Below, in pieces: positions 1,449 to 42,115 of a DNA stretch of 64,000 nucleotides; the first letter of the stretch is position 1; every line of letters begins with the position of its first letter. The stretch lies in the NCBI GenBank assembly GCA_039621445.1, contig CP154954.1:23262954-23326953 (forward strand). Reading direction: 5' to 3'. A program made the translations under genes and the position numbers. The notes under the pieces were generated by a model. It made no database searches, was not told the origin of the DNA, and saw only the letters and a list, made by a program, of their open reading frames with translations. This stretch comes from Euglena gracilis (Eukaryota).

Positions 1449-1817
1449 TGTACGTCCCACCCCGGCTTTTCTACTTATGCTTTCCTCCCGAAAAGCCCTT
1501 GGTTGGAGTAACAATAAAATTTGCTTCCCTTTTCCCCTTTTGAATGCAAAGCACACAAGCAGAAGAATTTGTGGGACCGCAGTCCCTTATATGAAAGTGA
1601 CTTTTGCTCTTTCGAGCTTTGTAAAAGAAAGAAATAAAACTTGTATTCAAATGGGACTTCGCCCTCAGAATTCTAAGCTTTCGCTAGCTCTGAGATTCTC
1701 TCTTTGTCTTATGGTTTAACCATGCCACTGTGTACAGCCCGGCCGTAGCCAGCTTGTAGGCCGTAGCCCATTGTATCTGGTACACAGTGCCATGGCAGAA
1801 TGGCTGCCTGGTACACA
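1449..1817 (-). repeat. 3' LTR (369 bp)
   Basis: Direct repeat of 18602-19030 with TG...CA termini (plus strand TGTACG...GTACACA). Confidence 0.93.
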
Positions 1818-3455: not shown

Positions 3456-3459
3456 TGTA

Positions 3460-8067: not shown

Positions 8068-8068
8068 C

Positions 8069-8135
8069 CTGAAAAAAAAAGCAAATAGTAGTAAGTACTG
8101 AGCTGTGGGGAAACAGAGAAATAAGGCATTGTACG
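8069..8135 (-). promoter_or_regulatory. Putative splice acceptor (polypyrimidine tract plus CAG) just upstream of the accessory ORF ATG
   Basis: Minus strand reads ttgc-(T)9-CAG|G-ATG, with AG at 8070-8069 and ATG at 8067. Confidence 0.65.
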
Positions 8136-8368
8136 GTAACATTGTACGCATGCAACCAAGTGTACAGAAACACAAAAATAATTGCATGTTTGCAATAATT
8201 GTAAAATCAAAATTGTAGCTCCGAGTGTAAAAATGGATTGTATAGGACCGCAGTCCTTTAGCGAAAAGTCCTTCGCTAGGGACAAAATGGTTTGGCATCC
8301 GCCCATTATACATTTTGTCAAAAGTCCAAGCTATGGACAAAATCTTGGACATCTTTGTATATCCTCCC

Positions 8369-9780: not shown

Positions 9781-9827
9781 TTTGTACGACGTCATTGTAA
9801 AAATCATCTTTGGAATAATCCCATTCT

Positions 9828-11560
9828 CTAAAAAAAAGAGGGGATGGGGATTCGGATCGCGTGACCCGGCGGGTGCCCGGCTTTCTGCCGCGTTGTCGTT
9901 TTTCCCCGTACGGGGGCTACCGGCGTCCGCCGCCAAATCCGCGAGACCCGAAAACTGTCAAGTAGGTTGTCAGCGGCGTCTGCGCGCCTTGCATATTCGT
10001 CGGCTTCGCGACTTCCGTGGAACGTGGCATCACCCTCGTCAGGGTTACCAGGGTAATGCCAGGGTGCACGTGAAAGTGGGTCAGCAACTTTTTGAGTATG
10101 ACCTGGTGTGTCAACTACCACCAGGTTGAATTGACTCAAAAATTCGTGCCATCGGCATCTTCGGCCAACTGAGGACATGGCTTTGTTTAAGTCTTCGGTG
10201 TACCAGTGTTGGAGAGACTCGTGGTCTGTCAACACTAGTATTTGTACGAGTGAACTGGCGACCCAACTTCGGAATTTTTGTAGGATAAGGACAATGACAT
10301 ACGTCTCCTTTTCTCGTATGCTCCGTTTGACTTGTCCTTTTCCATCTTCACCCTGTAGCTTTCTGCTGAAGAATGCTACAGGGCGCAGTTCATTGGACGA
10401 GTTATTTTGACTCAACACGCCGCCGACAGCATAGTCGCTGCTGTCGACCTCCAGTACGTATGGTTTGTACGGGTCGGCAATGTCAAGTACAACGTTGTCC
10501 AACATCAGTTGTTTAATTGTCGTTAGCGATTCTCGCATTGTATCATCCCATTGTATCTTTGTATTGTCAGGAGCGCGATTTTTGAGTTGTCGCGTCAGTG
10601 GTACCGCAATTTTCGCGAAATCCTTCATGTAAATCGCGTAATACTGCGCTAAACCCAAAAATCCTTTAAAATGGGAGATTGTCTTGATGTTTTCAGGTGT
10701 CCACTTCTTTATAGCTCCGAGTTTGCTTGGAGATGCTCTCCTTTGTACGTTATTAAGAATGTGTCCACAAAATTTTATCGTTTCGCGAAACAAATGCATT
10801 TTTGCACCCTTGACGAAAAGCAAATGTTTTTGGAACGTTGTCAGAACGGAACGTATATCGCGGTAGTGAATATCAAGGATATCACTACCCGAATTTGTAA
10901 GTGGAGGAGGTGTGCCAATCAGCACGTCATCAATGTATACCATTGCAAACGGTAAGTCTCGTAAAATCCATTGTATCATTCTTTGGAACATGGCTGGGCC
11001 ATTCTTAACACCCATTGGTAACACCGTCCATTGGTAAACTCCGCGGGAGGTTACGAATGCGGTGTATGGTTGTGAGTCAGGGTGTAGGTGCATCTGGTGA
11101 AAACCATCCTCTAAGTCGAAAATCGACCAGAGGCGGTTTTCCGCTTGTTTTGTAATCAGGTCTTCGATAAGTGGTAACGGAAATGGATCGTCTTTTGTCT
11201 GTGAGTTCAAGTATCGGTAATCCAGCACAAGTCTCCACTTCTTCTCTCCAGAAGCATCGGGAGGCTTGGGTACAACAAAAGCTTGTGAGGTCCATTCGCT
11301 TTTGGATGGTATGATCCATTTTCGTTCAATCAGTTTTTCGATCATTGTATTGAGAGCTTGTTCTCTTTCGCCTGAACAGCGAAAGAATTTTCGGTGCATG
11401 GGCTGTGCACCTTCTTTGAGTTCGATCTTACAGACACCAAAAGGTCCGCGAATTGCAGGATCTATGTCATGGGCATAGATAGGATGTTCTAAAACATCAC
11501 TGAATTCGCGATTGATCTTTGTACATGGTTCTTGTGATTTGGGATGTTGACCACCGCTTT
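9828..11560 (-). CDS. Ty3/gypsy reverse transcriptase and RNase H
   Basis: KWRLVLDYRYLN, FDLEDGFHQ, LPMGVKNGP, VYIDDVLI, FLGLAQYY, EVDSSDYAVGGVL, LTDHESL. Confidence 0.96.
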
Positions 11561-11639
11561 CTATCACTGCGGATAGTTGGTATTTCTGGTCATTCTGACC
11601 TTTATCCTGTAGGAATTTGTCAGTGTGGTCAACAGTTCC

Positions 11640-12050
11640 GAATGCATCAAAGAAACAAACACGAAAATGATTTATTTCAATGGTGGTAACATGACACCGC
11701 AAAAATCTTCGAACAAAGGGGTGTCATTCGGTAAATCCCATCACTGAAAAGTGACATACGTCAATTGTTGGAACCATTCCGCTTCGGGATTTATAGGAAT
11801 CAGTAGCACACCGCGTGCTTGATCCCGAAGGATCTTGTCAACGACAAGAGGGATAAGTTTCAGAGGTGGATGTAGCCACAGGACCACATCACCCCAAAAA
11901 CTTATCAAACGCATTTGTATGGCTTGACCAGTAATTGGGTAAACGAGAATGTGCTTTGGACGAAAATGCGTCAATCTCCAATTGTAGGTCCATCGACTTC
12001 GCGATTTGTGCGATTTTGGAAAACCAAGTTTCCAAAATGCGGTATTGTCC
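11640..12050 (-). pseudogene. Dam-like (phage/DIRS-type) N6-adenine DNA methyltransferase domain within pol
   Basis: Joining frames across a T-run at 11896-11900 gives QYRILETWF...LEIDAFSSKAHSRLPNYWSSHTNAFDKFWGDVVLWLHPPLKLIPLVVDKILRDQARGVLLIPINPEAEWFQQL. Confidence 0.8.
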
Positions 12051-12815
12051 AAAATTGAACGCATTCCAGATGCGGTTCGCGAAAACTGTCGTGGTTTCAG
12101 TCCTGTGGAGGGCTGAAACACAGTTTACCGAGCCACATCGGTAATACGTTATATCCGAAGACACTTTATCAGGCATTATACCAGGTGTATCAGGTGTATT
12201 GTGTAGAGGACAATTGTCGTTGGCATTCTGCCACTTGTATGCAGGGACATTGGAGGGGTTGGTATTCTGCCATTCGGGGTCAGAAAGATTGGCTTTCTGC
12301 CATTGGAGGTCCTGTTGTGCGATTCTCGCGATTCCAAACAGGGACGCGATTCCGCGTTTGTTCAATTGTCGATGTACTTCAACACACAACGGGTAGCAAC
12401 CCGGTGTGTTGTGTTCTCGTTCAGCGGTCAGGGTAAACTCGGTACCGGTCCCGGTGCCAAGTGTACTCTGGTTGTTGTGTAAAGCGATTAGTTTGGAAGG
12501 TTCAACAATACGTCCACAGTCGAAATCAGGTTGTGCGGAAATTCTCCGGCAATGTGCGCATTGGTAGGAAGTGTCGGTCTGGTAGTGCATGTCAGTCTTG
12601 TGTAGTGTGTGCATGGGGGTGTTGGAAGTTGTAGCTGCTGGGGGGTGTACAGGGGTGTCCGAAATCGACACACCTGATGGAGAACGTAGAAGGTGTGCAG
12701 ATGGGCGGCTACTCGACACCGAAATTTCTTCAGGCCTTTGGGGTTTCGCCTTGGAACCCAGTGAAACGTGGGGGGTTAAGCTACTCGCTTTCCCTACCGC
12801 ATGGGAAACGTGCGG

Positions 12816-13430
12816 TTAAAGTGCAGTGGGCAGGAGGGCAGCTTTCTCTTTACCCCTAGGGTAGGAAACGGTGTTTTCGGTTGTAGAAAACGTTGTGGCA
12901 AGGCGGGGTGACATCTGGGAAGATGTCTTGGGGGAGAAATTCGGTGGTGTGGGTTGTGTGCGTGAAGTAGTGCGCAAACCGAGGGAGGGGCAATCCACAA
13001 TAAGGCGGTTCTGACGCAAGAACGAAAAACTAAAAATTACGTCAGAGCCGCGAATACCCGATTCGTAACTCCAGGTACCCAGAAAATTTTGTGTGTGTGG
13101 GGGCTGTGAGTGGTTCTTGGGGATGATGGGGAGGAGTATGTCCAAAAAGCATCCCAAGTCACCACCACACATGGGGCTGTTGTCAGCAGTCATAATTTTA
13201 GTGGGGTACTTGGCTTTCACCAAGAGGGAGTTGGGAATTAATCCCGTTCGGAAAAGAAGGGGGATTCGACACCCTGTGTCGACCAAAATTTTGCATTTGG
13301 CAGAAAAATTTTGTGTTCGGATTTCCGCTTGGACCAAAAGTTCCATGGGGGGTACGCAAAGTGCAGGATCCGGTGTAAAATTGTTGTGTCTCCAACTATT
13401 CCAGGATCCCGTTCCTACTTTGCTCAGCAT
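12816..13430 (-). CDS. Retropepsin aspartic protease
   Basis: KILVDTGC active-site motif and later GSDVIFSFSFL, between gag and RT. Confidence 0.85.
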   Translation of the reverse strand: MLSKVGTGSWNSWRHNNFTPDPALCVPPMELLVQAEIRTQNFSAKCKILVDTGCRIPLLFRTGLIPNSLLVKAKYPTKIMTADNSPMCGGDLGCFLDILLPIIPKNHSQPPHTQNFLGTWSYESGIRGSDVIFSFSFLRQNRLIVDCPSLGLRTTSRTQPTPPNFSPKTSSQMSPRLATTFSTTENTVSYPRGKEKAALLPTAL

Positions 13431-13582
13431 TCCAGGCAGAAATTTGGAGTGGGGAGTGGGGTCCCGAAAATTTTCCGGGTACCGACCAAAAAGGCAGATG
13501 GGCAGGGAAAGTAAGGTTGATCAGGTCCTACTTCCGTCTGTTCATCAGCCCAGAGGTCCGTGCCCACAGACCTCGGGCTCCC

Positions 13583-15916
13583 CTACTCCAAGTCCGATTC
13601 AGCACTTCGGCTGTTTATCGTTTTCTTGTGTGAGTAGATAGCGCGCAATGCGCGGACCGCATTGCGGTCATCCTCCAACGAGGATTCGGAGTTATCATCC
13701 CCCTCCCTGCCCGAAGCCGGGGTTCCCTCCTCTAAAGAGGAGATTTTGAACCCGACCTTGTGTTTGTTGTTGTGTTTTGTATCATTGTAGTGACGTTGGT
13801 TCGGGCGGGGAGAGCAAGAACGATAACATTTGGACGAATGGTGGTTATGTGATCCACAAAGGGAACACTTTTGTCGGTTTTGTGATTTTTGTCGGTTTTG
13901 TGATGGGCTTTCACCCCTTGGAGGTCTTGGTGAACGGAATCCCGTTCGACCACGGTTCTTGTTGTAATCCGGTTTCCCGGATGACGATCGCGAAGAAGAT
14001 GATCCACTTCGCGAACGTGATCGCGATGAGTCGCGATTTGTATCACGCTTGTAAGGGGGTCGGGGTGATCGACCACGAGGTGCGCGATCGCGTCCGCGGT
14101 CGCGGAACGGTGATCGGGACCTTTGGCGATAACCCGATGATTGTGATTGTCCAGATTTGTGTAAAAACCCAGAGGAGCGTGAGCTCCGCGAGGATTGTGA
14201 ACCCCTTGGACTTTGATACCGCTTTCGCGTATCAGGGTGGGGGCAGTCACGGGACGTATGCCCCGCTTTGTTGCACAAAAAGCAAGTTTTGTCAGAAGAT
14301 TGGTCAGATGAGCGCGGATAGCGCGTTTTTGTATCTCCTCTTGGGGAATTTGTATGTTTACCGTATCCCCGTGGGGATTTTGGAGATTTTGGAGAAGAAG
14401 TATTTTGTAGGGCACTTACCGTACCGCTAGGGAGACCAGCGGTAGGGTGGTGTGTGTAAGCCGATTGTATCTGTCCCAAAAGTTGTGAGAGTTTCATTTG
14501 TTTGGAAACATAGTTCCATCGTTGTTCAAGTGTGAGTTTGTTGTCCGCGAGTTCCTCGCGGTGGATGTCCTTGATAATTGTAGGAATGAAATGGAGGAGA
14601 ACCGCATCGAATTGTTCTTTCATTTGGTTCTCTCCCAGTTCATCAACCTCAGAAGCCAATCCCAACCATTTGGAATACCAAAGGTCGATGGACTTCCATT
14701 TTCGGTCACTGGGCGCGAATTGCCGCCATTTTTTCTCCAGCGTAATTCGCGAAATGAGGCTTGAACAGGTTGACGCATATTGGTCAACCAGTCAATCAAA
14801 AGTTATCCGATTCCGGATCACAAGTTGTCGGGCGCGTTCTTTTTCTTCCTTGGGGAGGCAATCAATGAATTCCATCTTGATTACCTCAGGGTTCCCATCC
14901 TGGGTTGGACCCTTCAAGTCCCAGTAGTATGTCCAGTCGCGCCAAAATTGTTTCCAAGTTGTGGGATCTCCGTCCCATTGTGGCTTTACCTTGTTGGCAA
15001 TTGTAATTGTACCTTTGAAATCGCGCTGTGGACCGCGATTTCCATCGTAATTGTTGGGATAAGGTTGTTGTTGTGGCATGCGCGAATGCGCATCCATGAA
15101 TGTACTCATGGTACCGTAGGTACCATGGGTATTTGGTACATCGCAATTCCGCGAATTGTATGGTTGTGGTTCGCGATTCCGCGATTCGGATTGTAAAGGG
15201 TCGCGATTCCGCGATTCGGGGTGTGGCAACATACCAGGGGGGTAGGAATCCCGTTGTTCACCCGCAAATCGGGGAACCGCGGTAAATTCCGTGTTTCGCA
15301 TTCGCGATCCATGGGCAATACCCGGGGTAGGGGTATGGCTCATACCGCGAATCAGTCCCGATTCGCGAATTTCCTGTTGTAAAACCGGAGGATTCGCGGT
15401 TTTTGTGGTAAAAACCGGTTCCTCATCCGAAGATTCACCCTTAGGGAAGGGAATCTTGAGTTGTGGAATAAACGGGCGATTGTAATCGCGATTGTAGGCA
15501 TGTTCATGATCATGTGCATCCGTGGATGCTTGTAGGGCATGCGCATCCGAAGATGCTTGTAGGGGTGCGCATACTGCGCTTTTGGAAGGATTGGCATCCA
15601 ACGAATCGCGAATTTGATGCACAAAGTCGCGAGTTGGATGTCGGGCATCCGAAGATGCTTCGGTTGATGCGCGAAAAGCGCGTTGTGAGCTGGAAGTTGC
15701 ATTTTGACCACCGAAAACACGGTTTTCAGGGGCAAAGTGCGGGGGGTTGCGGGATTTTGCATGAATCTCGTCCAAAGTCAATACAAAGTCTTGGATGAAT
15801 GAACCCCACTTGGAAAAGGTCCGAAATTCCTTCAACATCTCCATGCAAAAGATTAATTCGTTTGTGGTATAAGTGTAACTCATCCAAAAGTGGTAGTTTG
15901 TCAACAATGGAGGCAA
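13583..15916 (-). pseudogene. Gag core with CCHC zinc knuckles and an RS-rich region; frameshifted
   Basis: PQWDGDPTTWKQFWRDW capsid-like motif, CFLCNKAGHTSRDC and CSLCGSHNHHSSKC. Confidence 0.88.
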
Positions 15917-19706: not shown

Positions 19707-22700
19707 TCATGTGCTGTATGGGTGGTGAGTGTCCATGCCACCTCCTTCGTTGAGGTCGTCAGGGCATTGGCCCCACACGAGCTGTTTCGCCAGTTCTCTG
19801 GCAAGGGCCATGCTGAGGCCCTGCCAGCACTTTGCCTCCGCTGCTCGCCTCTCCCATGCGTCATGTTGTCCCGCAAGCAAGTGAACACAGTTTCCAACAA
19901 AGGCAAGCGCTGCCTCCCCCATTCCTCCGTAGCAATCGAGGACAAAGGGGATGAACGTCCACCCTCTGCGCTTACAACCGTCTCCATACTTTTTGATTTT
20001 GTCTTCCTCCTGGCTCTCATGCCATTTCCCAAGGTCTTCCAATCCTGGCCGTACGCGGGAAGGTGCAAGGGGGTGGCGAACGGTCACATCGATTGCCGCC
20101 GGACCGTTTGCATCATATCGCATCACAAATACGTCGCCCGGGCGGGAACCATCAGGGGCACTCTCCTCTCTTCTGGCCGGGAAACCTGCCTTTTGGGCCA
20201 GCCCAAGGATGTAGGACTGCACCGCCCCGTGTCGCCGAACAATGTTGTTCCGGTGGCAACAAACGAGGTGATGGCCTCTTGCGTCCAAGGGGTTGTGGCA
20301 CCGAGGGCACCCGGGACAGGCATCTGAAGGCGAAACAACCGGAGCACCCAGGGACCATTGCATCAGGGCCTGGAATTCCCTTGTTGGTATGAGCGTCCTT
20401 GTGGCGGCTGACGGCGTAACGGAGGCCCAAGCCATAGCATGTGGCTTCATCTGACATGCCATTTTCAGTTTATCGCTACCCGTGAGTGAGTTGTACAGAG
20501 CTTGCTGTCGGGCCTTTGCACACTGTTGTCCCCAGAATTTCTGTGCCGTCATTTCTTGAGGCAGCATCTCCGGACTTTTTGGGTCCTCAACAAAGGCCTT
20601 TGCAATCGGTGGGAGCTCACATAGACCCTTGATGGCCTCCACCTGGGCGGTAAATTCCGAAGGTAGGGGGTTCATCCCACAGATGGGTGGCAAGTCGAGG
20701 ACGCGGTCGCCGCGAACAAGAAAGTCAAGTGTGGCGGCCCACCTGGCGATCGGGCGCTCCGTGGTAGGGTCCCGGGTGCCCAACCCACCCAACCGGACAG
20801 GCAAGGTGGCCTGGCGCCACTGGTCCTCTTCCAGCGGCCGCCCGACAATGATGCTGGCGGTATTCCGTAGGGTTTTGCTTAGCAGCGTGCACTGCATGGT
20901 TGCAAGGCCAATTGGAGTAGTCCTCAACAGGTCGTTAACCTTGCACGCGTCCAGACACAGCCTTAGAATGGTGAACTGGATGTGCGCAGAAGGCACCTTC
21001 TGCAAGGCTGAACACGCCTTCATAGCTTCTTCGCACCGCCCAAACCACACACGTTCGGCAAATGTCCCGTCCTCCGGATGGCAAATTGGAACCCCGAGGG
21101 ACTTGATTCCGGAACCAGGAATGTATGGAGTTACGGGGATGCGTTGCAATACACTTGTCCCCTCCAGGAAGAGAAAACGGTCGGGTTGGAAGGCTGGCCC
21201 CCAAAGGGTGCATTTGTTGATATTCAGGTCAACACCAATGGGTGGTCCCTTTTCAAGGACCAAATGTACAACCTCCTCCAGCTGGCGTGTAGTCCCCATG
21301 ATGTGGGCATCGTCCAGGTACCAGGCCTGCCATCCGCAAACGCCATGGATTTCCTCCACCAGACTCTGAATTGCCATGGCAAAGGCAGCCGGTCCACAAG
21401 GATCGCCTTGCTGAACCCCCGACTGGCTTCGGAGGGATGTGTCGCTCAAGAAGAGGCTCGAGTGTTCTGCATAACAGGTCTCCAGCCACGTCACCATTTC
21501 TGGACATCGTTCTCGTGCTGCTTCGAGAAGGTTATCCCTCCGGATCCGGTTGAATGCGTTCCTGAAGTCCAATTGCAAGACTCCCCAGTCACGAGAGCCT
21601 CCATGATGGAGGCTGGTCACGAGGTGTTGGAGGCCCATGCCGATCAGGCCACAGGCGTCAGGACAACCCACCCCAAAACTGCCCGGGCATCCCACCTTGG
21701 GTAAACTTTCGCACGGCAGGTTGGCGCATCAGCACCTTGCCCACCAGTCGGCGCAAGCATTCTCCAGAAGCAATGGGCCGAGTCCCTTCTTGTGCGGGAT
21801 CCTGCCCATTGGGTGTGAGGTTCCCAGCGTCATCCACTGTCGTGGCCGGTTTGACCTTTCGCAGCGCCGTGAGGCGTGCCGATGTGAGGATTTCAGCCAC
21901 ACCAGCGGGCCATCCCGTGTTGATGCAGCAGAAGACGAAGGTCATGAGGCCCTCAAGCAGTGTCTCGGCCTGTCCCCCAGCTTCCCTGCTAAGCATGTCC
22001 TTAATGTGGTCCGGCTTTAGGCCCGATGGCCCTGCTGCCGATTCTTTTCCGAAACTGAACGCGGACCATGGAAAGCCTGTCCCTCCTCTCGTTCTCGTCT
22101 CCAGGTGGCGGAAACATAACCCGTTTATCCGTGGGGCCCCGGCCAGGTGGTTCCTCAGCCGGGTGAAGATCGTTCAACCGTTGGCGCACAACGGGGTGTT
22201 TGTCATCTTGCACGCCGTCCGAAGTCAGGACCTGGCATGCCTTGCCAACGGCACCCTTGCTCACCAAACGTTCAAGGCGGCGTACGAATGCTTCTTCTTG
22301 CACTTCTTGCTCACGTCGGGCTTGGCCCCTGGTGCGAACAGGTTGACCCATTTGGGGTAAGCGGGCAGAGTCCTTCCAACTGTCTGCCACCGTTCGTTTT
22401 AGATAAGCTTCCGCTCTGCCGCGGATGGCCCTTCCCAACCGGGCCCAATGGCCGCGTCCACCCTTTCCCAAAGGTGCCAACACAGCCTTGGGGAAAGCCC
22501 ACAGGCCATGTAATGTTTCCCAGGTGGGCCTCTCGTTGAACGCCCGGAGAAGGCAGGAGTACACGTCACAGACCGCGGGAAGGGCTCCCTTTGGTATGGT
22601 GGAAACAGTGCCCCTTGGATCCGAGGATATTTCCATCCACGACGGGGAGAGATCCGGGCACGGGGATTGAAGGGCAGTGCCAGTTTTCATGCCGGGTAGA

Positions 22701-23100
22701 TATTGAACCCCCATTTCAACGTCGTCCACCCCATGCAACGCACTGGGTCCTCTTGTGGGCCCTGGGCTATTTGTAGCGGGGAGCGTGGCCTCCAGCGGTG
22801 GCCGGCTGATGAGCCGTTGCAACAGGTCTTGAAGCTCCCTGGCATCTTGTGAGGAAGGGGATACTTGCGGCGGGGGCTGCAACGGAGGCATGGTTGTCGC
22901 CATGAGGAAGCCAATTGTACGCTCTGTGTTTTGTTCAAAGTCAAACAGCATTGGCACCAAGGTGTTGTTCGCTTCAGGGAAGGTTGGTGGACCCGGGCCT
23001 GGGTTTGATTCGACATCCCCTGATGTCAGCAGGCTGTCCCCTCTGCCGGTCCGAGGGTGAGCGGAGGCATGGAGCTTGCGGGGAAGGCCGTTCCGCTTCC
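19707..23100 (-). pseudogene. CRE polyprotein: 2A motif, N-terminal region, RT, CCHC finger, restriction-like endonuclease; frameshifts near 22050 and 21680
   Basis: GTRPIASGECLRRLVGK, LDFRNAFN, GVQQGDP, WYLDD, CPRC...HHLVCC, RRHGAV, RPGD, AIDVTV, E.DKIKKY, FIPFVLDCYG. Confidence 0.92.
22994..23040 (-). other. 2A/StopGo ribosome-skipping motif LLTSGDVESNPG|P
   Basis: Exact match to the D(V/I)ExNPGP consensus, in frame in ORF 22001-23701. Confidence 0.88.
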
Positions 23101-23129
23101 CAAAAGGTCCAAGGATTTGACAAATGCCC

Positions 23130-24008
23130 GTTCTGCCGGCTCCACCACGTCCATCCGAGAGGATAATTGAACTCAGCGACCTCAAAAACCCTGTGCCTGG
23201 CCGCTTTGCGTGGCTTGGAGAATCCGCCAATGCCCATTCTCCGCAGGGGTCGAGGAGCTTGAGGCTTCGCTCTCTACCAGGACGGTCTTGACGAATGCCG
23301 GCTCTGGCGGCTCCACCACGTCGGTGTGAGCGGATATTCGGACTCGGCGACCTCAAAAACCCCCCTGAGGGGACTCTCAGTGGGCTGTTCCGGGTGATTT
23401 TTGCGAAGAAATTGTAATGGCTGGTGCCCGGCGGAAATGGTTCCCGTACTCCCCGGTACGGGAAAATTACGCATGGCCGTTTCCGGCCTCCCGCCGCATT
23501 TCGGCGGGACGAGGACCGCTTTTTCGGGTCCGCCACCCTCGAAAACCTTCCTTGTGGGCATCTGAGCGGGCTCCGCCGGGTCGTCATTATGAAGCAACTG
23601 TGATGGCCGATGCCGGAGGGCACTGGTTCCCGTGTGCCACCAGGACGGTCTTGACGAATGCGGGCTCTGGCGGCTCCACCACACCACGTCGATTTGAGCA
23701 AATATTCGTACTCGGCGACCTCAAAAACCCCCGTGAGGGGCCTCTCAGTGGGGTCTGCCGGGTCATTTTGGCGAAGAACTTGTAATGGCTGGCGCCGTGC
23801 GGCTGTGGTTCATGTGCTCCACGGGACGAGAAAATTCAGCATGGCCGTTTCTGGCCTCCCGCCGCATTTCGGCGGGACGAGGACCGCTTTTTCGGGTCCG
23901 CCGCCCTCGAAAACCCCCCTTGTGGACATGTGAGCGGGCTCCACCGGGTCTTCTGAATGAAGCAACTGTGATGGCCGATACCGGAGGGCAGTAGTTCCCG
24001 TGTACCAC
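23130..24008. repeat. Two full ~365-bp tandem repeats plus a partial copy in the 5' region of the CRE element
   Basis: accaggacggtcttgacgaatgc at ~23276 and ~23639; gcgacctcaaaaaccc at ~23176, ~23347 and ~23715. Confidence 0.88.
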
Positions 24009-24589
24009 GGACTCCAACAAAGTACTCAACAAGGGTCGAAACCTCCAAAGAGCATTTTGAGTGCAACAGCAATTTTTGCAGTCTTTTCGCAAGTGGATAT
24101 GGCGGACTTATGATCATAATGGCGGGCCCTTCGCCCAACACCCTTCCGACCGGGGGGGAATGACATGGCACTAATCCGGGAATCGTCGTGGGTGTCTTTG
24201 GGGCAAAAAGTCCACATGTTATGTTTTGTTCGCTTCTCATGCCTTCGGTGATGATGATGATGTCGATGGATGGTCCGGGGCTGACCTCCCGGGCTGCTGC
24301 TCCAGGGCTGATCTCCTGGGCTCGTTGGGGGTTGGGGGGCTCACCCCTTTGGTTGGCATGCTGGGGGTTGCAAGGCTTGTTCTCTTGCCCCCGGTGCCAT
24401 CGAACGCTGCGGGGCTGTGTCTCCCGCTGCTCTGGAGCTGTGGGGCTTGGCATCCCACAGGAATCAAGCTGGTTTGTCAAGTAGAGAACTGGTCACGATC
24501 AACAGTTGCAAAGGAGTGGAAGTAGTCGATGACTCCAAACTGTCCTTTTGCACCAGAAATCTGCGCATCCTGCCAATTAGGAGTAACCT

Positions 24590-24690
24590 CGATAGCGGTT
24601 TAACTCGCTGGATTAAATCCGGTCTGACACCCGAACCTCGCTGGATTAAAACGGATTTAATCCAGACCGAGTTAAATGTCAAATCGAATT
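24590..24690. repeat. Small hairpin (MITE-like) element
   Basis: ttaactcgctggattaaatccg pairs with cggatttaatccagaccgagttaa. Confidence 0.65.
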
Positions 24691-25283
24691 AACTGTCCTA
24701 CGAATTAAAGCTACCCCCTGTACGTGATGTCCTGCGCCTGGCGACCAACTCTTACTCTGGAACTGCCAAACAACGCAAGTCTCAAGAACTGAATGAAAAC
24801 CTGGCCATCTCGCTAGCCCGTGCTGTAGCACGGCAGATGCAGTTGGCCGAAAGGGCCACGGACCGCATGATTCTGAACTCGTAAGGACACCATGCCCCCG
24901 ACAACACCCGCACCACCACCCGGTTCCCTTTCAAAGTCCCGGGGTGCCCGGCACATGCACACCAAACACTATACAGTCCTCCCGCCACCTTCATCTCCCT
25001 TCGCTTGGGCTTTGCCCTTGCCCTTGCCTCACCTCACTTCCGCTTTGATCTGTATATAGCCTTGCTCCTGAACACTCAAATCCAGTAGGCTGTGCCACTG
25101 GTCGGTGGACTCGGCTCGCCCCACCACCGTTGAGGGCCCAACCCCCTCTAGATAAGGCCAACCAGAACCAAAGTGAAACAGGTCAAGTGACAGGCAGGTG
25201 CAACGGCTCGCGGTGACCCGTCCCGACGGCCAAGAACAGCACGCCGACACGGGCGACGTGTGGGCACGACACGCGCAAGACAT

Positions 25284-25416
25284 GTGCGAGCCGTGCCCAC
25301 CGTGCCGAGCCGTGCCGGGCCGTGCCGAGCCGTGCCGAGCCGTGCCGAGCCGTGCCAAGCCGAGCCGAGCTGTGCCGAGCCGTGCTGAGCCGTGCAGAGC
25401 TGTGCCGAGCCGTGCA
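25284..25416. repeat. 10-bp minisatellite (ccgtgccgag)n, with an inverted copy at ~29281-29307
   Basis: Directly visible repeat; gcacggctcggcacggctcgcac at ~29284 is its reverse complement. Confidence 0.85.
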
Positions 25417-26160
25417 TGTGCGCACCCGAGAGAGGATGGGACATTGGTGGGCCCCATTCAAATCCAATCCTCCGGACCGAGACCACTGTTCACAAAGGAG
25501 ATGGCAACTCCACATCCACCATCAATTAGGGCCCATGCCCCTCGGGGCAAGGCAAGCGAGAATCGAAGTGAAGCAAAACAGTGACAGGCGGGAGCAACAA
25601 AGAACAGCACGCCGGCACCGACGCGCGAGACACGTGTGCGCCATGCCGAGCCGTGCCCACCGCTGAAAGGCGTCCCCCCCCCCCCGCCATCAAGGGGAGG
25701 CGTGCCCGAGGCGTCCAAACGAAGAGATCAGTCCTGCAGCCCCTGCCGGCTTGGGGGCGTTTCTCGAGAAAAGGCCTTCGATGAGAAAATGGTGGACGAC
25801 CCCCCCCAAGGGGGCGGACGGACGGACGGACGGACGGACGGCTGGTGAAAAAAGCGAAGGTCCGGACGGACGGCTGACCTTGTGGGCTTGGTCCAGACGG
25901 CTGAAGAAAATGCACTTGGTCCAGCTAGCCGGCTAGCCGGCCGGGTCTTTGGAAGCGCAGGCGTCTCAGTGCACGCGACTCTGGGCGGATATATACCAAT
26001 TTTTTGCCATGGCCGGTGTGGATGGGGGTGTCGTCCCCGTGACCCCCCCCCCGTGACCCCCCCCGTGACCCCCCCGTGACCCGGATTTGAACACCCCCCG
26101 ATTTTGGGGTCCGCAAACGCACGTGCTTCAATCACAACTGCTTTCAGTATTTTTTTTCAA

Positions 26161-26730
26161 ATGTCGCGGAAGCCGGAAACATTGAAGAGGAGGCCATATC
26201 CCCCCCGTGACCCCCCCCGTGACCCCCCCGTGACCCCCCCGTGACCCGGCCCACCCCCGATGCGCTCCAAGGTTGAGATTGCCAAGTTTTTGCTGACAGA
26301 TTCAAAGCTGGAACGGATGCGGGCAATTGCCCGTGGTGCTCAGGACAGCATTGGACTCCCTGCAGGCGCACTCACGGCAATGCTGGAGCGTGCACACCAG
26401 GAAAAACCGAAGGGCAGGGACTGGATGTCTCGTACCGTCCATTGGAGTCAACGACACATTGCAGAATGTGGCCCCGTCACCACGGTGGAGCTGAATAAGC
26501 ATCTGAATATCATCTGGAAGAGATGGGCAAGGGCAGAAGCCTCAGCGCAACAAAGAACGTCGAAGTTGGAGAAAGCTCGACAAGAGGGTGGGGTATGTCA
26601 AATCCCCATGTGCTTTTTTCCAATGTTGTCTGACAGGTTACAAATGATCAATCTCCAGTTGTTGCAAATGTGCAGAATGATTCAGACGTTATGGTCGTCC
26701 CAAATGAAACAGAGGAATTACTTGTTTTAA
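26161..26730 (+). CDS. Unknown helical protein, possibly the accessory gene of the adjacent Harbinger-like element; intron-containing
   Basis: ATG 26161 (MSRKPETLKRR), ORF SKVEIAKFLL...WKRWARAE, and a GT-AG intron at about 26588-26636. Confidence 0.4.
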
Positions 26731-27048
26731 TTTTTTTCGGTGCCAATCACATGTTAATTGCACAGGACGGTTATGAGTTTCGGGGGGGGGGGGATGCATT
26801 TCGTATTTTTTTGCACAATTTTTTCCCATTATTCCAAAAAACGCTTTTTCTGCGTTTGAGGGTCTGGCATTTTTTGGTACAATTGTTCCATTTTTTATGG
26901 AGCGGCACTTGTTCGATTTTTTGTGGTTCACCCATTTTTTGACCTTTTTCTTGATGTTTTTTTTTTTTGGGGTTCCCCCCCCATTTGGTTCGAAAAGCCT
27001 GTCGGTGAGCCCCCAAAAATTGGAAATTGTACCAAATTATCAGTAGAA

Positions 27049-28251
27049 CTCTCCAGACGTTGGGCAGTTGCATGGTGGAGGTTGACCCCTGCCACTTCCG
27101 CCAACCTGGCAACAGTGTTCCTCACTTCCCCCATCAAGGCTGGATTGAGGTTGAGGTATTGAGGTTGAGGTTGAGGTTGAGGTTGAGGTTTTCCAACCTC
27201 CATCTTTCCTCAATGTCACCTCAATGCCAAAATCCAAAAGGAAAACGACTCAACAAAGAGAATTGAAAAAGAGTGTTACAAAGAGAGGCAAATTACCTGG
27301 ATTTTTTCAAAAATTGAGCAATTGGTCACTTATTTCAAGTTTTTTTTCGGCACCCCACTATTTTTTCTTGTTTCCACCCACATACGTTGTAAATTGACAT
27401 AAAAGCTGTCAAACTTGCCTTTGAGGAAGGTTTTAGAAGAGGAGATGTTCGAATCCATGCTTTTTGTGAGTTCATTTTTTTGAATTTTGGACATTGAGGT
27501 GACATTGAGGTTGAGGTTGAGGTTGAGGTCGTTGACATTGAGGTTGAACTTTTTTTGAAATCCTCAACCTCAATCCCGCCCTGCCCCCATACCATCGGCA
27601 GCTGGAGTCAGGGTTTTTCCGAAGGCTGTTTGAGAAACAGAGAAAGACCCTGAGTCGGACACTGTTCCAGTCCACACCCATTCCCATAGATTCACTGCAG
27701 TGGGTTGATCTTTTGGGGGGCATATCCTGAATCTATGCATGAGACAATGAGTATCTGCGTCAATCGAAGTACAAGGGGAGTGTCGCAAAGTTCCAATGCG
27801 CCTCAACCCACCTCGGGTTTATAGCGTACTGGGATGGGCCCCGGAACTCTCTGTTTTTGTTTTCTGAAAAAAAATTGAAAAACAGAGAGGGCACCACCCC
27901 GGTGCTGCCTCTGACACGGAGCTGGCGCGGCGTTGCAGACCTTACCTGTTCCCAACTGACACATTTCTGGCCGATAAGGCCTACGAAAGCGTGCCCAACA
28001 TGCTCCCCCCCCTCAAAGAGCGACGCCTGTTGTCCTTTGAGGAGAGGGAGTATAACCGAGCGCACCAATTTTACCGCGATCGGGTTGAGCACGTTTTCGC
28101 TTGGATGAAAACCTTTGGTGTGGCCGCTCAAAAGCATCGCTCACCGGACTTGTTTGTACTTAAAAGCGCGATGCTGACCCTTGCAAACATCCGCAACATT
28201 ATTGTGGCGGTGCGGGTACCGTATGTCCCGTACCGGCCGGTGTGGCCGTGA
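27049..28251 (+). CDS. PIF/Harbinger-like DDE transposase core split by four non-canonical introns
   Basis: Exons ~27049-27132, 27589-27605, 27658-27681, 27743-27842 and 27896-28251 join in frame to ...NSVPHFPHTIGSWDTVPVHTHDNEYLRQSKYKGSVAKFQCASTHLGFIAYWDGPHPGAASD...FLADKAY...EREYNRAHQFYRDRVEHVFAWMK, with an intact D-D-E triad. Confidence 0.82.
27135..27583. mobile_element. MITE with 22-bp TIRs and 7-bp TSD (CCCCCAT), forming the first reconstructed intron of the transposase
   Basis: Left end CAAGGCTGGATTGAGGTTGAGG; reverse complement of right end CAGGGCGGGATTGAGGTTGAGG; CCCCCAT at 27128-27134 and 27584-27590. Confidence 0.85.
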
Positions 28252-28329
28252 TTTCTTCCTTTTTTCGTCAAAAAAAGCCCCCCCCACCCCGCAGCTGAAA
28301 AAGTGCAAAATAAAGGGCATATGTCTGAA

Positions 28330-28405
28330 CATCGTCAGTGTAGTTCAGAGGTCGAAGCACAGGTCGACGTCTCTGTAGACACGGGTTCGAATCCCGGTCG
28401 TTGGG
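28330..28405 (+). ncRNA. Degenerate tRNA-like (Pol III A/B box) sequence
   Basis: A-box-like TAGTTCAGAGG at 28341 and T-arm CGGG-TTCGAAT-CCCG at ~28382; acceptor stem is poor. Confidence 0.45.
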
Positions 28406-28475
28406 GGCGACTTCCTATTTTCTCTGAGGCGGCAAAAATAATTTTCATAAAAGTACACGGAGAGGAATGATATCA

Positions 28476-28547
28476 CCCCCCGTGGCATAGCGGTCGTGTG
28501 GTTAGCGTGTGACCGGTAGGTCGCGGGTTCGAATCCCGCCGGGGGGC
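28476..28547 (+). ncRNA. tRNA-like cloverleaf with non-canonical anticodon loop (pseudo-tRNA or SINE head)
   Basis: Acceptor stem CCCCCCG/CGGGGGG, A box TGGCATAGCGG, T arm GCGGG-TTCGAAT-CCCGC, 72 nt long; the anticodon loop lacks U33. Confidence 0.65.
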
Positions 28548-29264
28548 AACTTCGTGTTTTTCCTGATTTGACGCGACGAGTAGAGGGAAGCCGTGACTGC
28601 TTTTCGGAAAGGAAGGAAAAATTTTTTTTGGTCCGGCCGGCTGGCAAGACAGACATTGGTCCGGCTTGATGGACGGCTAGCGAAAAAATGCTTCGTCCGG
28701 ACGGACGGCTGGACGTCCAGCATTGGTCCGGCTGAAGAGGTCCGGACGGCTCGGACGGCTAGCCGGCCAGCCGCCCCCCAAAGGAGGCTAGGCGCGCCGC
28801 TCGGGGGGGGGGGGGGGGGCCGGGCCCCCCCACTCCCCCCGCCCCTACGCGGCCGCGGCGCCCGCTCGCCCCCCCCCCCCCCCTCCCCCAACCCCGTGAC
28901 CCCCCCCCCGTGACCCCCCCCGTGACCCGAACCACCCCCCTTGAGAAGAGCTTTCCATTGAGGGGCAACGGAAGCAAATACCCTCAAAAACAGAGTTTTA
29001 GATAGATTTCAGGCTTTTTGAAAGATTTTTTTATCCACATTGGCATTGCACACTGCCTTGCCATCTTCCTTGAAAAAATGTTCCCAACCCCGGGACATTT
29101 CTTCTTCCTATAACGAAAAAGAAGCGAATAACTGGGGGGGGGGTCACAAGCGATTAACCGTTATTCAATTAACCATGGTTAATTGCCCCCCCCCCCACAA
29201 ACGAACGATTAATTGGGGGGGGTTACAAGCGATTAACCGTTTTTTGATTAACCATCCAACCTTG

Positions 29265-31712
29265 GATGAAACCACATGCCGGAGCACGGCTCGGCACGGC
29301 TCGCACCGGGGTCGTCCAACTTTGGAGGCTAGGCACAGCGGGGGGGGGGGGGCGAGCGGCCGCGCGGGCGGCCGCGCGGGGGGGGGGGGGGGGGGGGGGG
29401 CCGAGGGCGGCCCCGGGGGGGGCGCGCATCCTAAAATCGGTAATTTTCGGGTCCAAAAAGTGGTCATTTTTTGCCATTTTTGGGCCATTTTTGACCAAAA
29501 AGGTGCTTTTTTGGTCGCGTGCACAGCGCGCGGCCCCCAAATTTGCCATTTTATGTCCGAAAATGGTCATTTTTGGTCATTTTTGGCCTCAAAAAAGTCG
29601 CGATTTTTCATTAAAATTTTTTTATTGGCTATGCTAGGCACAGGGAACACCACATTTTTGGTGGCAAAATTAGGAATCACCGAGCCTAAATTTTTGGGAA
29701 AAATTTCCACAAATTAGGAATCCCCACCAAATTAGGAATCACCAAGCCCAAATTTGAAAAATTTACGCCTCAAAATTAGGAATCTGCCTGAGAACTTTAT
29801 CAAATTAGGCATCACCGGCCAAATACCCAACAAAATTTCGCCGAAAAGGGTCCTTGTTCAGGTCACGGGGGTCACGGGGAGAACACCCCCAAGGGTTTTC
29901 GACAGATGGCCATAGAATTCAGCCACAATACACACCGTGCTTATTTTTCAGTGATTGTTTATTCCAGAATTTCACATATTAATTAGAGAAATCCCACCCT
30001 TCAAGCACCATACAGCATGGGGGATGCATGGTGTGGGCACAACACCATGACCCCCCCCCCCTGTACCTGAACATCGGTGGACCCGGGACCCCCCCCCCAC
30101 AAACTCGTTTGGTCCAATTGAGTTCGCTACTTGACAAGGGGGTCCCGCGGGACCCCCCCCCCCCCTGTGCATGGGCCCACTTCGGGGGTGCTACCCCCGT
30201 GACCCCCCCCCGTGACCCGCCCGTGACCCGAGAATCGAGCCTTCGATTTTCATACAATGCATCAACCTTCATCACTTCAGCCTTTCTTTTCATTCATCAT
30301 TTCAGCCTGCTTTTTTATGTAGGTGGCGGTTTTGGTCGCTTTTCATCAATTTTCTTGTTCAAACCATCAAAAATTTGCCTTGACATGGTCTAAAAATGGA
30401 AAGAAATGCCAAGATTTGAGGTGAAAAAAATTTCGACCCAAACAATGGCGCTTCTTTGCCGTATGAATTTGACCGGCTCATTGCGGGAAATTGGTGATGC
30501 ACTTTTTGGTGGTCGCTAGCGACCAGTCGCTAGCGACCAAGTCTACTGACCATTGGTGGTCGGGCCGACCACCAATTTTAAGTTTACCCTCCCTCAAAAA
30601 GTTTTTAAGCCACCCCTCGAAAAAAAATCATTCAAATTTGCAGCAGCCCCCCCCCCCCGGAGGAGGCCATAGGGAGCGCAATTCGGCCATCCTTGCCTTC
30701 CACACATTGCAAACTAACCCCGAAAATTAAACCCCGAATGGAGGTGGGGTGGACTTAAAATTGGTGGTCGGAGCGACCAGTCGCTCCGACCACCAATGGT
30801 CACTAGTGACTAGTCGCTAGCGACCCTAGCGACTAGTCGCTAGCGACCACCAAAAAGTCCATCACCAATTTCTCGCTCGGGGCCAATTTGACGCAAAACA
30901 TTGGCAAAAGGGAGATTGCGCAAGTAGGAAAGAATTTCATCGCAAAAAGGGGGAGAAACATGGATTTTTTTGTGGAAGAAACCCCCCCCAAAAAACAGAA
31001 ATAATTGTCCTCACCCCACCTTCCATTTGGACAACCAAACCCCTTTTTGGCACCCAACGTCCAATGCACCTCCACACCCAAAAATGGCCAAAAATCTTGT
31101 CCCCTAAAAAAGTGCCAGAAATTGCTGCATTTCTGCAACGAAAACAGAATTTTTTGGCTAATTTTTTCCCCCTTCAAAATAGCCATTTGGGCCATTTTTT
31201 CAAAAATGGCCCAAAATGCATCCCAAAAAATGTAACGGTCAATAAAATCCTGAAAAATTCCTTTTCAAAAAAATGAAAAAATGACCAATTTTGGACATAA
31301 AAATCACCCAAAAATGACCACTTTTAAACCAAAAGGCATTTTTCTTGTTCAAAAATAGCCCAAAAATGGCCAAAAATGATTACTTTTTGGGCCCGAAAAT
31401 CACCGATGCGTGCCGCCCTTCTCGTGATGGGATGCAACAACATGGATGCTGCCTCCCGACCACCTCCAAAGTGGCATACTTCCCCCGTGACCCCCCCCAT
31501 GACCCCCCCCCCTTGACCCCCCCGTGACCCGCACCACCCCCTTCAATTGCAGCTGCCCCATTGGCATCGTGTCTCATCGTGATCTGAGGGTGAGACAATG
31601 GGAGCACCAAGGAATCATTCAACCAAGGCCTAGAATTAAAATTTTTGGGATGAGAGCTCTTGTGGCGGCTGACGGTGTCACTGATGCCCATGCCATGGCA
31701 TGTGGTTTCATC
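29265..31712. mobile_element. Foldback/TIR element with nested inverted repeats
   Basis: gatgaaaccacatgcc (~29265) pairs with ggcatgtggtttcatc (31697-31712); an inner ~140-bp inverted repeat pairs 29421-29570 with 31281-31414. Confidence 0.7.
30475..30884. mobile_element. Mutator-like MITE (~60-bp TIR, 9-bp TSD)
   Basis: gaaattggtgatgcactttttggtggtcgctagcgac pairs with gtcgctagcgaccaccaaaaagtccatcaccaatttc; flanks are AATTTGACC and AATTTGACG. Confidence 0.8.
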
Positions 31713-34523
31713 TGGCTTGCCAGATGAAACAGGGTTGGGCAATTAACCGTCATTTTTCAGGTCAAGCGATTAACCATGGTTAATTGGGGGTCGGGCGTCG
31801 ATAACCAATTTTCGATTAACCGTGCCTTTCCCTCGATTAATTTCGATTAACCGCCACTGGATCGTTTTTTCCCCAAAAAAAGCAAAAGTCATTTGCCTTT
31901 CTGGCTTACTTCCTCACTCCACAATCTCGGCCAAGGACAAAATTTGGCGTCCAGAAAATGTGGTATCCCCCACAAAGTGGCCACCCTCCAGGCAGCTTGG
32001 GACCCCGAAATGGCCACTCTGGGGGAGGGGACACTTTGGGGGGGGGGGTCAATTTTCGGGCTCAAGCGCCTTCGACGCCAAAAGAAAGCGGCCACTTTGG
32101 GCGGGGTATACAAAATTTGGCAAAACATTTTGAGGGGGGGGGTGAGGGTTTGTGAAAACTTTAATCGGCATAATTTTTTCCTGAGAGGGAGGGCTTAAAA
32201 AAAAAACTTATGGGGGTGAGGACTGTGTTGGGCTCAGATCGACTTAGTCGGCTCGATCGCCCAAAGTCGACTCGACAACCTGTGCCCAAACGGAGCGAGT
32301 CGATTCAACTACCCCTTACTCTTGAGTACAAGTGGTGGGTGAGGGGGGTTTGGCGGGGGTTTGGCGGAAATGTGACGGACATTTTTCCTACTTTAAGCAC
32401 TGTAACCCCCCCCCCAAATGCAACCCCCCTCCAGTTTTATATTTGGGCAGAAATTTCAAGACCCCCACGGGGGTTTTATATTTTTTATATTCGGTTGGAA
32501 AAATCAACTTCTTGGCGGGATCCAATAGTCACTTTTTCACAAATAAGCCCACCCTTGGGGGGTCCAAAAATTTTATTTTCCGGGTGAAGGAGCAATTTTC
32601 ACACGTTTTTGGTAAAAACTGCTCCCAAATCTGCCAAAAATCACAATTTCAGGAGAGATTTTGTCGAATTTTTTTTCTTCCGGCGCGAAGCGAAGGAGGG
32701 GGGGTTATATTCGGGCGGGATTTCAAGGTCCTCGGGGGGGGGGGCATATTTGGGGGGAGGTTGTATTTGGAGGGGGTTTTGCATTTGGGGGGGGGGTTTC
32801 TCGGTTTTCTGACCATATGTTGCTGTCCCCCCCACCAAAAAAAAACTCTTGGATCCACCGCCTTTGGAGGAGTTTAGCTCTTTCATGTCCCTGACAGGTG
32901 CGCAATGGTGGGCAGGTCCTGGGGCCATGGCGGTTTTTAAGTCTTGTGCACCAGGTGGAACAGGGGGGGGGGAGGCTCCCCCCCAGTCTACCGTTTGCCA
33001 CTGGGGGGGGGGGCATGGTATTCAGATCAAACATCTGCGGAGAAACCAGACACTTGTGAAACAGAAACTTGTCTGGCAAAGGCAATTATTTTCAGAAAAT
33101 TATCAACTGTTTTGAGAAAAATGGCAGTTGTTTGGAGAGAATTGGCAGTTAATTAGAGATAATTGACCGGTTAGAGTTGAGAAACGTGGCAATTATTTTG
33201 GTTATGTCAAATTCTTGCAAAAGTTTGGTGAAACATTTGAAAAACAGCGTACTCCCGCTGTGCCCTCACCCCCCAGATTGCCCCCCCCCCCCAAATTGAC
33301 CGTTTGGGTTTTGGGAGGTGCCAGCTTTGTTCTCAAAAATTCACCGTGCAAAGGGGGGTTGGTACGCCGTGGCGGGGGGGTCCAAAGGGGGGGGGGAGGG
33401 GGGTTAATGGCGTGGGGGGGGGGGCGGCGCCCGGGGGGGGGGGTGTACCATGGCTTCCAACAAAATTTTCGTTCAATAAATTTGCGAAAATCCCCGGAGG
33501 CGTGGTGAGGGGTACGGCTAGGGGGGGGGAGCCCCAATTGGGCCGTGGGGGGGTGCAAGGCCGCCCAAGGGGCGGCCAAGTTGGGGGGGGGGGTGAGGGT
33601 ATTCAGTTTTTCGCGCAAAATCCCTGGGGGGGGGTATAATTGGGGGAGATATTATTCAGTGGCTTTTCTTCAGCAGTGGTTCAATCGTTTCTTTAAAAAA
33701 AAGTGTTCGCCCATTTAAAAAAAAAACTGGCAGCATCTGCAAAAAAAATTGGAATACTGTGCAAAGAAATTTGCCACTGTTTGCAAACAAAATGACAGGA
33801 AGTGCAAAAAGACAGTGATTTTTTCCAGGCTTGTGCATGCGCATGTGTGTGTCAGGGGGTCCGTAAGAAAATGGGGGGGAATCCTGCTGTCCCAGCACAT
33901 CTCAGGGTTGACTTTTTTTTTAAAAAAACAAGTTTTTTTTTCAAAAAAAAACGCCAAAAAAAAAACATGTTTTTTTCAAAAATCAAAATTTGACTTTTTC
34001 CCTTGCGAAATGGCCATTTTTTGAGGAAAAAAAAAGTTCTAAAGTCATTTTTTTTGGTCATCAAAAAGTGACGTTTATTTTTGATTATTATTATTATTAT
34101 TCCAGACCCTTCATCCTTAAACGATGTGGTTGGTAAGGCGTCACACATGTCAAAACAAGCACCCTTGACGGAATACGAAGGTGCAGAGATAAAAAAAGAC
34201 CTTTTTTTTCTTCACAAAAAAAACATTTCAAAAAAATTCTACAAACCCTCCATGACATTTTTTTATTCTTTTATTTTTTTTAAAAAAAGCCATCAACCTT
34301 GGCACATCTGTCAAGCAATGGGGACAAGTCGATTGGGCGGTCGGGTCGACTAGTCGGCCCGACTACCATGCCCCCCCCTCCCCCGAGCTGCCCCCCCCCC
34401 CCGAGCTACTCCCATAGGGGGGACGGGAATAGCTCACTGTCATAGCACTTTTTACAAACAGCAGTACTTTTTTTGACAACGTATTTGCAACTTTTTGTTA
34501 CCTACAGACATTCTTGGCACAAA

Positions 34524-42019: not shown

Positions 42020-42115
42020 AAAGTCTGTGTTTCTAAACACAGACTTTGCCGTGCCGGAGTCTGTGTTTAGAAACACAGACTCTGACCTAAGTCTGTGTTT
42101 CTAAACACGGACTCC
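42020..42115. repeat. Three tandem palindromes (agtctgtgtt...aaacacagact)
   Basis: Directly visible. Confidence 0.8.

Follow-up and report, generated by a model that had tools for sequence, protein, structure and literature searches.

A foldback transposon family inserted in a transposase exon of Euglena gracilis as a candidate for testing the MITE-origin hypothesis of nonconventional introns

Introduction

Is a transposable element that sits in a coding exon of Euglena gracilis an intron in the making, or does it simply break the gene in which it landed? This question is raised by a locus in a 64,000-nucleotide stretch of contig CP154954.1 (hereafter the window, whose positions are used throughout). 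Here, a 449-bp element whose ends form terminal inverted repeats (TIRs) interrupts a transposase gene that also appears to carry three short introns. An initial annotation of the locus read the element as a young intron and the short introns as its eroded relatives.

A MITE-like origin of the nonconventional introns of euglenids was proposed in 2013, in the available text of that paper from intron shape only (PMC3935182). The proposal is repeated in the accessible parts of later papers, from 2016, 2024 and 2025 (PMC4770533, PMC11282704, PMC12501133, PMC12621601), and as set out in these excerpts it already reads the CAG and CTG motifs of the introns as TIR remnants and the repeats at their junctions as resembling target-site duplications (TSDs). 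A full-text literature search found no primary report that names an actual element family behind nonconventional introns, and in that search only a 2024 review treated euglenids and nonconventional introns together with TIRs and target-site duplications.

The signals of these introns have been defined more closely. According to the available text of a study based on genome statistics and knock-in experiments, a Euglena nonconventional intron consists of 3 nt, CAG...CTG and 5 nt, with a purine next, so that CAG occupies positions +4 to +6 and CTG positions -8 to -6 (PMC12501133). Single substitutions in either motif abolish reporter function, the 3-nt donor spacer is strict, and an acceptor spacer shortened by one (4 nt) leaves about 20% of wild-type function, although CAG and CTG are only weakly conserved in natural introns (PMC12501133). 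A recently gained nonconventional intron in E. agilis gapC is described with 8-nt direct repeats in the excerpts of a second study (PMC4770533).

Results

The insertion is an ordinary MITE

The element occupies 27135-27583 on the forward strand. It is a non-coding foldback TIR element with runs of the hexamer GGTTGA, long subterminal inverted arms and high word depth in public reads, and none of its four internal ORFs (71-90 aa) matches a Pfam family at E<=0.1. Inverted-repeat and pattern searches place its TIRs at 27135-27156 (5', starting CAAGG) and 27562-27583 (3', ending CCCTG); they are 22 nt long and complementary at 20 of 22 positions (91%). A degenerate pattern for these TIRs matches twice in the 64-kb window, both times at the ends of the element, and not once in 100 shuffles. 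Repeat comparison revealed a perfect 7-bp duplication, CCCCCAT, immediately outside both ends (27128-27134 and 27584-27590), the two copies being spaced by 456 nt. The fold predicted for the single-stranded element is one long foldback with an energy of -154.5 kcal/mol (z -6.31; equalled by 0 of 100 shuffles), and its outermost bases pair C-G and A-U. The inverted-repeat, pattern and fold tests thus bear out the initial description of a 449-bp insert with 22-bp TIRs and a CCCCCAT duplication. By every test that we ran, namely TIRs, TSD, short length without coding capacity and many copies, the element is an ordinary MITE.

Neither the TIR pattern nor sequence comparison detected a further copy of the element within the 64-kb window. 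The TIR pattern also occurs at five public metagenome loci, which we set aside as chance matches: the similarity is limited to the 22-mer and the rest is unrelated.

The host is a DDE_Tnp_4 transposase gene

The ORF at 27868-28248 (+) matches PF13359 (DDE_Tnp_4) at E 1.6e-09 over profile positions 48-137 of 158, which is the C-terminal two-thirds. The last exon with the stop codon (27895-28251), which encodes this C-terminal part, reaches 38 bits on its own against a curated cut-off of 24.8. In a HMMER search of 1.84 billion representatives, E<=1e-3 was reached by 97 relatives, of which the top one has 4e-24 and 50% identity. Word-based protein searches found no close relatives at 'longer' or 'near' lengths and so recovered no spliced product of this organism. 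The relatives are small proteins of 271-312 aa, and the eight that were looked up sit on short contigs of about 0.9-2.1 kb. All four full-length relatives tested belong to DDE_Tnp_4 and match profile positions 2-158, 5-158 or 20-158 of 158 (139-157 positions).

Comparison of 25 relatives with 26000-29000 by tblastn located further exons at about 27024-27131 and 27761-27841. The first belongs to the exon 5' of the insertion (27009-27134), for which an HMM of nine full-length relatives gives E 6.3e-10 over profile positions 87-121 and whose 5' limit is set only by the preceding stop codon. The second belongs to the exon at 27743-27841, placed by alignment and by tblastn (relative P0003, residues 129-154 on 27764-27841, 61.5% identity). 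Homologue alignment adds a 15-nt exon piece directly after the insertion (27591-27605) and a 24-nt exon (27658-27681). The same HMM was run over 26200-27134 against the pieces of plus-strand reading frame with a length of 12 aa or more. Eleven pieces came in at E<=100, and the exon at 27009-27134 was the sole finding; profile positions 1-86 have no match on this strand of the interval. We dropped a by-eye alignment of 26800-26900.

Further upstream, 26593-26636 reads as a candidate conventional GT..AG intron of 44 nt whose removal would put the ORF at 26245-26592 in frame with the one that starts at 26637. Its placement in the same transcription unit as the transposase exons is likewise a candidate assignment made by reading the sequence. 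Word depth over 26250-26525 is 3,700-11,000, several-fold that of the rest of the gene, and contigs leave the window sequence at 26347 and 26421; the upstream ORF therefore overlaps another repeat family.

The surroundings hold other features. Arrays of a C-run plus GTGA unit flank the transposase gene on either side without a change of orientation (26030-26090, 26200-26250 and 28880-28930), with long poly-G and poly-C runs nearby and similar peptides in ORFs near 30200. There is a tRNA-Thr (TGT) at 28476-28547, and a tRNA-like stretch about 75 nt upstream (region 28330-28547) was called by neither program.

Removing 456 nt restores the reading frame

Exon models were compared by script alignment with 10 DDE_Tnp_4 homologues, nine of which cover the insertion site. 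Taking out 456 nt at the element together with 27606-27657, 27682-27742 and 27842-27894 gives an open frame of 206 codons that is collinear with all 10 homologues and shows no gap against them at the three short stretches. At the insertion site, the frame after the 456-nt removal has the length of four of the nine covering homologues, and the other five have one residue more. If the element is retained, the frame contains stops; if 457 nt are removed, as the published spacers of 3 and 5 nt would dictate (model C), the frame shifts and again runs into stops.

Public reads contain an abundant element family and an empty site

We compared two public runs, X1 and X13 (recorded type 'DNA?'), as contigs with the window; 867 contigs from X1 and 590 from X13 match the locus. 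Word depth, which is a sum over contigs and not a calibrated copy number, is 20,426-32,882 (X1) and 21,072-29,814 (X13) in bins of the element interior (27216-27491) and about 60,000-168,000 at its hexamer-rich ends. The gene bins at 26940-27077 and 27630-27905 have depths of 559-1,815 (X1) and 489-1,226 (X13). In this uncalibrated measure, element words are about 15-50 times deeper than the flanking gene in both runs. Variant letters within the element are carried by at most 15 contigs at one site (27317). A single-copy insert with no family, which the initial annotation had set against its own reading, is not what these data describe: word depth is high and variant contigs occur in two runs.

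None of the 12.9 million records of a raw RNA run, X21, matched the locus, which speaks neither for nor against splicing. In run X15 (RNA by guess), the matching pieces come from the element and from 26347-26421 only. One loose end there is another copy of the element that also begins CAAGGCTGGAT and has a different flank. Since this second copy also starts with CAAGG, the CAA start is probably a feature of the family.

Two contig records from each of X1 and X13 join 17 letters to 27584 and onward, the start of the right-hand duplication. These 17 letters are identical to window positions 27111-27127, and a single CCCCCAT remains. Contigs of both runs also pass uninterrupted through the first two short introns, I1 and I2 (records 7 and 13), with no joints reported; the form without the MITE is therefore DNA and not spliced RNA. 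Because other copies of the gene are without the element, the 449-bp element is an insertion. Together with the open collinear frame, the exact empty site in X1 and X13 upholds the earlier claim that cutting out the element plus one TSD length restores the coding sequence.

Could the direction of change be the reverse, with an old element, an ancestral occupied form and MITE-less copies that were produced when the transposon excised or when a precise deletion occurred between the two 7-bp repeats? Direct repeats can mediate deletion, and the existence of both forms is all that speaks for this course of events. Cut-and-paste excision, however, usually leaves footprints, and the empty-site contigs are exact. 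None of the nine homologues covering the site has an interruption at it, and the duplication is perfect and the sole repeat of the target. We regard an ancestral occupied form as highly improbable.

An assembly artefact, in which repeats caused a MITE copy to be joined chimerically to this gene copy, is yet harder to credit. The element has very many copies and its surroundings are rich in repeats, and none of the 24 contig pieces listed (1,460 more exist) crosses the occupied junction at 27134/27135. A perfect 7-bp duplication at both TIR ends within a frame-exact target is nevertheless the mark that transposition leaves, and a misjoin does not; a second element in the window bears the same mark (see below).

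The reads also speak to the host. At 27707, 27754, 27756, 27760, 27933 and 28079, X1 and X13 differ from the letter of the window over their entire depth; at 28079 the letter of the reads encodes, by our reading of the alignment, the residue of most aligned relatives. The host gene is therefore repeated: the reads represent the majority form of its family, and the window copy is a diverged member.

A second element has similar ends and the same duplication length

A TIR element of 1,218 bp lies at 47564-48781. Its ends, CAGGGGGGGGAGAAA and the inverse, are perfect over 15 nt (16 nt at 100% in the inverted-repeat search) and read CAGGG...CCCTG; the flanking duplication, perfect over 7 bp, is CGGAAAG (47557-47563 and 48782-48788). 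No Pfam family matches its two overlapping ORFs. It is rich in GCAATTTT and GGTTATAGG repeats, and a possible internal 3' end at 47998-48012 would delimit a 448-bp unit but has no matching duplication.

A scan of the 64-kb window for CA..TG inverted ends with exact flanking repeats gave 1,277 pairs, of which 12 have a flanking repeat of at least 7 nt; an offset control gave 3. Three copies of a tandem palindromic repeat account for nine of these 12 pairs and a palindrome array (42038) for one; the remaining pairs are the 449-bp element and the element at 47564-48781. Inspection by eye of 16 forward and 19 reverse G-rich end motifs in the window yielded no more TIR pairs. The palindrome array consists of units of about 24 nt at 42020-42110 and has the look of a 60-nt TIR element flanked by an 8-nt repeat; we judged it a repeat array instead of a clean insertion. 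One palindromic motif, flanked by an 8-nt repeat, is found at 56194, 59155 and 61879; its spacings of 2,961 and 2,724 bp indicate that the final 10 kb of the window contain a tandem unit of roughly 2.7-3 kb.

That both elements have 7-bp duplications and G-rich ends resembling each other points to one type of transposase that makes 7-bp duplications. The initial annotation had put the difference between 7 and 8 bp down to a homopolymer error. This account fails, because the five Cs are fixed by the empty-site contigs and by the reading frame; for a duplication of 8 bp, a further T at the right or a further A at the left would be required, and not a C, and the duplication of the second element is 7 bp and no homopolymer. 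We thus discarded a masked 8-bp duplication. The 7-bp duplication and the CAA end also argue against equating the TSD with the 3 + 5 = 8 nt of the intron spacers.

Among 10 large ORFs of the window that were scanned, six match Pfam families, all of retroelement type apart from two sub-threshold coiled-coil matches, and four match none. Ty3/gypsy-type genes at 8372-14791 (-) encode a chromodomain with SH3_Tf2-1, an integrase core and reverse transcriptase with RNase H, alongside a gag-like ORF with a CCHC zinc knuckle; their long ORFs are uninterrupted, unlike the intron-bearing transposase gene. Two reverse-transcriptase ORFs (RVT_1) at 540-1586 (-) and 19710-21728 (-) presumably belong to non-LTR retroelements. 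Pfam gave no match for a 1,237-aa ORF (4669-8379) or a 512-aa ORF (2202-3737).

Two of the three putative short introns follow the published geometry

The short introns I1, I2 and I3 were deduced from homology and reading frame. I1 (27606-27657, 52 nt) would consist of 3 nt, a 44-nt CAGGG...CCCTG hairpin (27609-27652) and 5 nt, followed by G, and its predicted fold has -23.7 kcal/mol (z -2.96). The putative I2 (27682-27742, 61 nt) is likewise built of 3 nt, a 53-nt stem-bounded stretch with ends CAT..ATG (27685-27737) and 5 nt, followed by G. Its 10-bp terminal stem is absent from the minimum-energy fold (z +0.76). I2 cannot be slid, and its removal takes out an in-frame TGA. For I3 (27842-27894, 53 nt), alignment and folding (z -2.04) suggest an intron with a 12-bp perfect stem (27847-27858/27878-27889) that does not have the arrangement of 3 nt, stem and 5 nt. 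The stem spans 43 nt (27847-27889); an intron of stem plus 8 (51 nt, model D) breaks the frame, while 53 nt keeps frame and collinearity. A 47-nt version was rejected as well: it is in frame but adds two residues found in none of the 10 aligned homologues.

I1 alone has the CAG/CTG motif, which is missing from I2 (CAT/ATG) and I3. The 3-nt donor and 5-nt acceptor spacers with an in-frame product are present in I1 and I2 but not in I3. A secondary structure that joins the junctions is predicted for the element, I1 and I3; the terminal stem of I2 lies outside the minimum-energy fold.

Are these introns worn-down copies of the element? The initial annotation had proposed a series within one gene, from full MITE to eroded introns of about 50 nt, each short intron equalling its hairpin plus 8 nt. 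The length rule stands for I1 (44 + 8) and I2 (53 + 8) and fails for I3, which needs 53 nt with a stem of 43; where it holds, it restates the published euglenid code. The series itself finds no support at this locus. Sequence comparison detected no similarity between the 449-bp element and 27600-27900, and the letters common to element and short introns are at most the five end letters, in I1 only. The longest exact flanking repeats are 3 nt (I1), 1 nt (I2) and 0 nt (I3). In the reads, the majority form of the gene family has at least I1 and I2 (records 7 and 13). I1-I3 may have a transposon origin, but the locus gives no sign of graded decay from the 449-bp element.

The element is a poor substrate by the published code

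If the element were a working young nonconventional intron, the hairpin of its TIRs would join the junctions, 456 nt would be removed and the transposase mRNA would be restored. Several features agree with this. Removing 456 nt, a multiple of three, restores the frame exactly. Terminal C-G and A-U pairs close a very stable foldback, as in nonconventional introns. The element ends in CTG at its 3' side, and I1 of the same gene has CAGGG...CCCTG ends like the 3' TIR of the element. The 8-nt direct repeats of the recent gain in E. agilis gapC, in the available account of it (PMC4770533), supply a precedent, and a MITE origin is already a published hypothesis in the accessible text of three papers (PMC3935182, PMC11282704, PMC12501133).

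Against this, the 5' motif of the element is CAA and not CAG, so that the CAG...CTG geometry claimed for it initially is present only at the 3' end. Given the 7-bp duplication, spacers of 3 and 5 nt produce a cut of 457 nt and hence a frameshift. An in-frame cut needs either a donor spacer of 2 nt, which is not tolerated according to the available text of the reporter study, or an acceptor spacer of 4 nt, the variant with about 20% function, and is then followed by a pyrimidine (PMC12501133). The CAA donor motif and the out-of-frame 457-nt cut together make the 449-bp element a poor substrate by the published code. Weak conservation of CAG/CTG in natural introns, as reported in the same excerpts, softens the first objection: I2 and I3 must be removed although they are without the motif, so CAA may be tolerated.

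The host also weighs on the question. The transposase gene is repeated, the copy that serves as host is decayed, and other copies are empty at the site; with such a host and such copies elsewhere, there would be no selection for removal of the element. Taken together, the diverged host, the CAA motif and the out-of-frame 3+5 geometry tell against the earlier description of the element as a young intron. We consider this reading disfavoured and unlikely to be correct.

Discussion

We favor a nested transposon insertion as the explanation of this locus and think it likely to be right: a member of a very abundant non-coding foldback TIR family would have entered a coding exon of one copy of a repeated DDE_Tnp_4 (PIF/Harbinger-like) gene. 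The family would be defined by a length of 449 bp, ends of the form CA[A/G]GG...CCCTG and a 7-bp target duplication, here made in a transposase coding exon. The host gene family carries three hairpin-containing stretches whose removal is needed for an open frame collinear with its homologues, two of them obeying the published geometry, and the site is unoccupied in other genomic copies of the gene. The window copy, already diverged from the majority of its family, would simply have been disrupted. If the nonconventional splicing machinery were to act on the element, the code would predict either no cut, on account of CAA, or a frame-shifting cut of 457 nt; an in-frame cut of 456 nt would need the 4-nt acceptor spacer that retained about 20% of function in the published reporter, as far as its available text describes (PMC12501133).

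What, then, does the element offer to the question of intron origin? Both the MITE-origin hypothesis and the 3+CAG...CTG+5 code were known; what is new is a concrete candidate element family. A very abundant family of TIR elements with ends similar to the splicing code, recorded in an exon together with its empty site, makes the hypothesis testable. The 449-bp family is a candidate for such a test, and the copy in the window does not demonstrate the birth of an intron. A bolder proposal is that this family and its 1.2-kb relative at 47564-48781 are the postulated transposon source of euglenid nonconventional introns. CAGGG...CCCTG ends would then have given rise to the CAG/CTG code and the hairpin, the TSD would have supplied the spacers, copies in exons would be cut from the RNA (here with spacers of 3 and 4 nt), and I1-I3 would be older products. 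We hold this proposal to be doubtful. If it were true, the hypothesis that appeared in 2013 (PMC3935182) could be put to a direct test by a census of this one family.

How does the locus compare with known systems? The host gene resembles PIF/Harbinger transposases of the DDE_Tnp_4 family (PF13359) in the match of its C-terminal exon and in the nearly full profile matches of its relatives, and by our own reading of the alignment the window residues fall in the columns taken as the three catalytic acidic positions. It differs in that the host transposon's own ends and duplication were not found. Harbinger elements make 3-bp target-site duplications; if that applies here, the host transposase is not the partner of a MITE with 7-bp duplications. 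hAT elements have termini of the form YARNG and 8-bp duplications. The CAAGG and CAGGG ends of the two elements in the window fit this terminal pattern, and the size and foldback of the 449-bp element are typical of MITEs, while both elements differ from hAT-type MITEs in having 7-bp duplications, and no hAT transposase was seen in the window.

Introners and MITE-derived introns of Micromonas, Aureococcus, Polarella, Amoebophrya and Fritillaria, as described in the accessible text of a review (PMC11282704), share with our element a short non-autonomous TIR structure, a TSD, many copies and a position in coding sequence; in both cases, what has to be removed is as long as the element and one copy of its duplication taken together. 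Introners are, however, defined there by splicing and by recurrence as introns in many unrelated genes, whereas the only host seen here is the gene of another transposon. The closest comparison is with the nonconventional introns of E. gracilis and E. agilis, as the available parts of four papers present them (PMC12501133, PMC3935182, PMC4770533, PMC6221363). The differences are the CAA motif and 7-bp duplication of the element with its out-of-frame 3+5 cut, the departure of I3 from the geometry, and the deduced status of the introns. The likenesses lie in a hairpin that brings the ends together, as predicted here, in the paired ends and 3' CTG of the element, and in the presence of such introns beside a candidate GT-AG intron in what may be one transcription unit. 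The arrangement of 3 nt, CAG...CTG and 5 nt followed by a purine is that of I1 exactly and of I2 by position.
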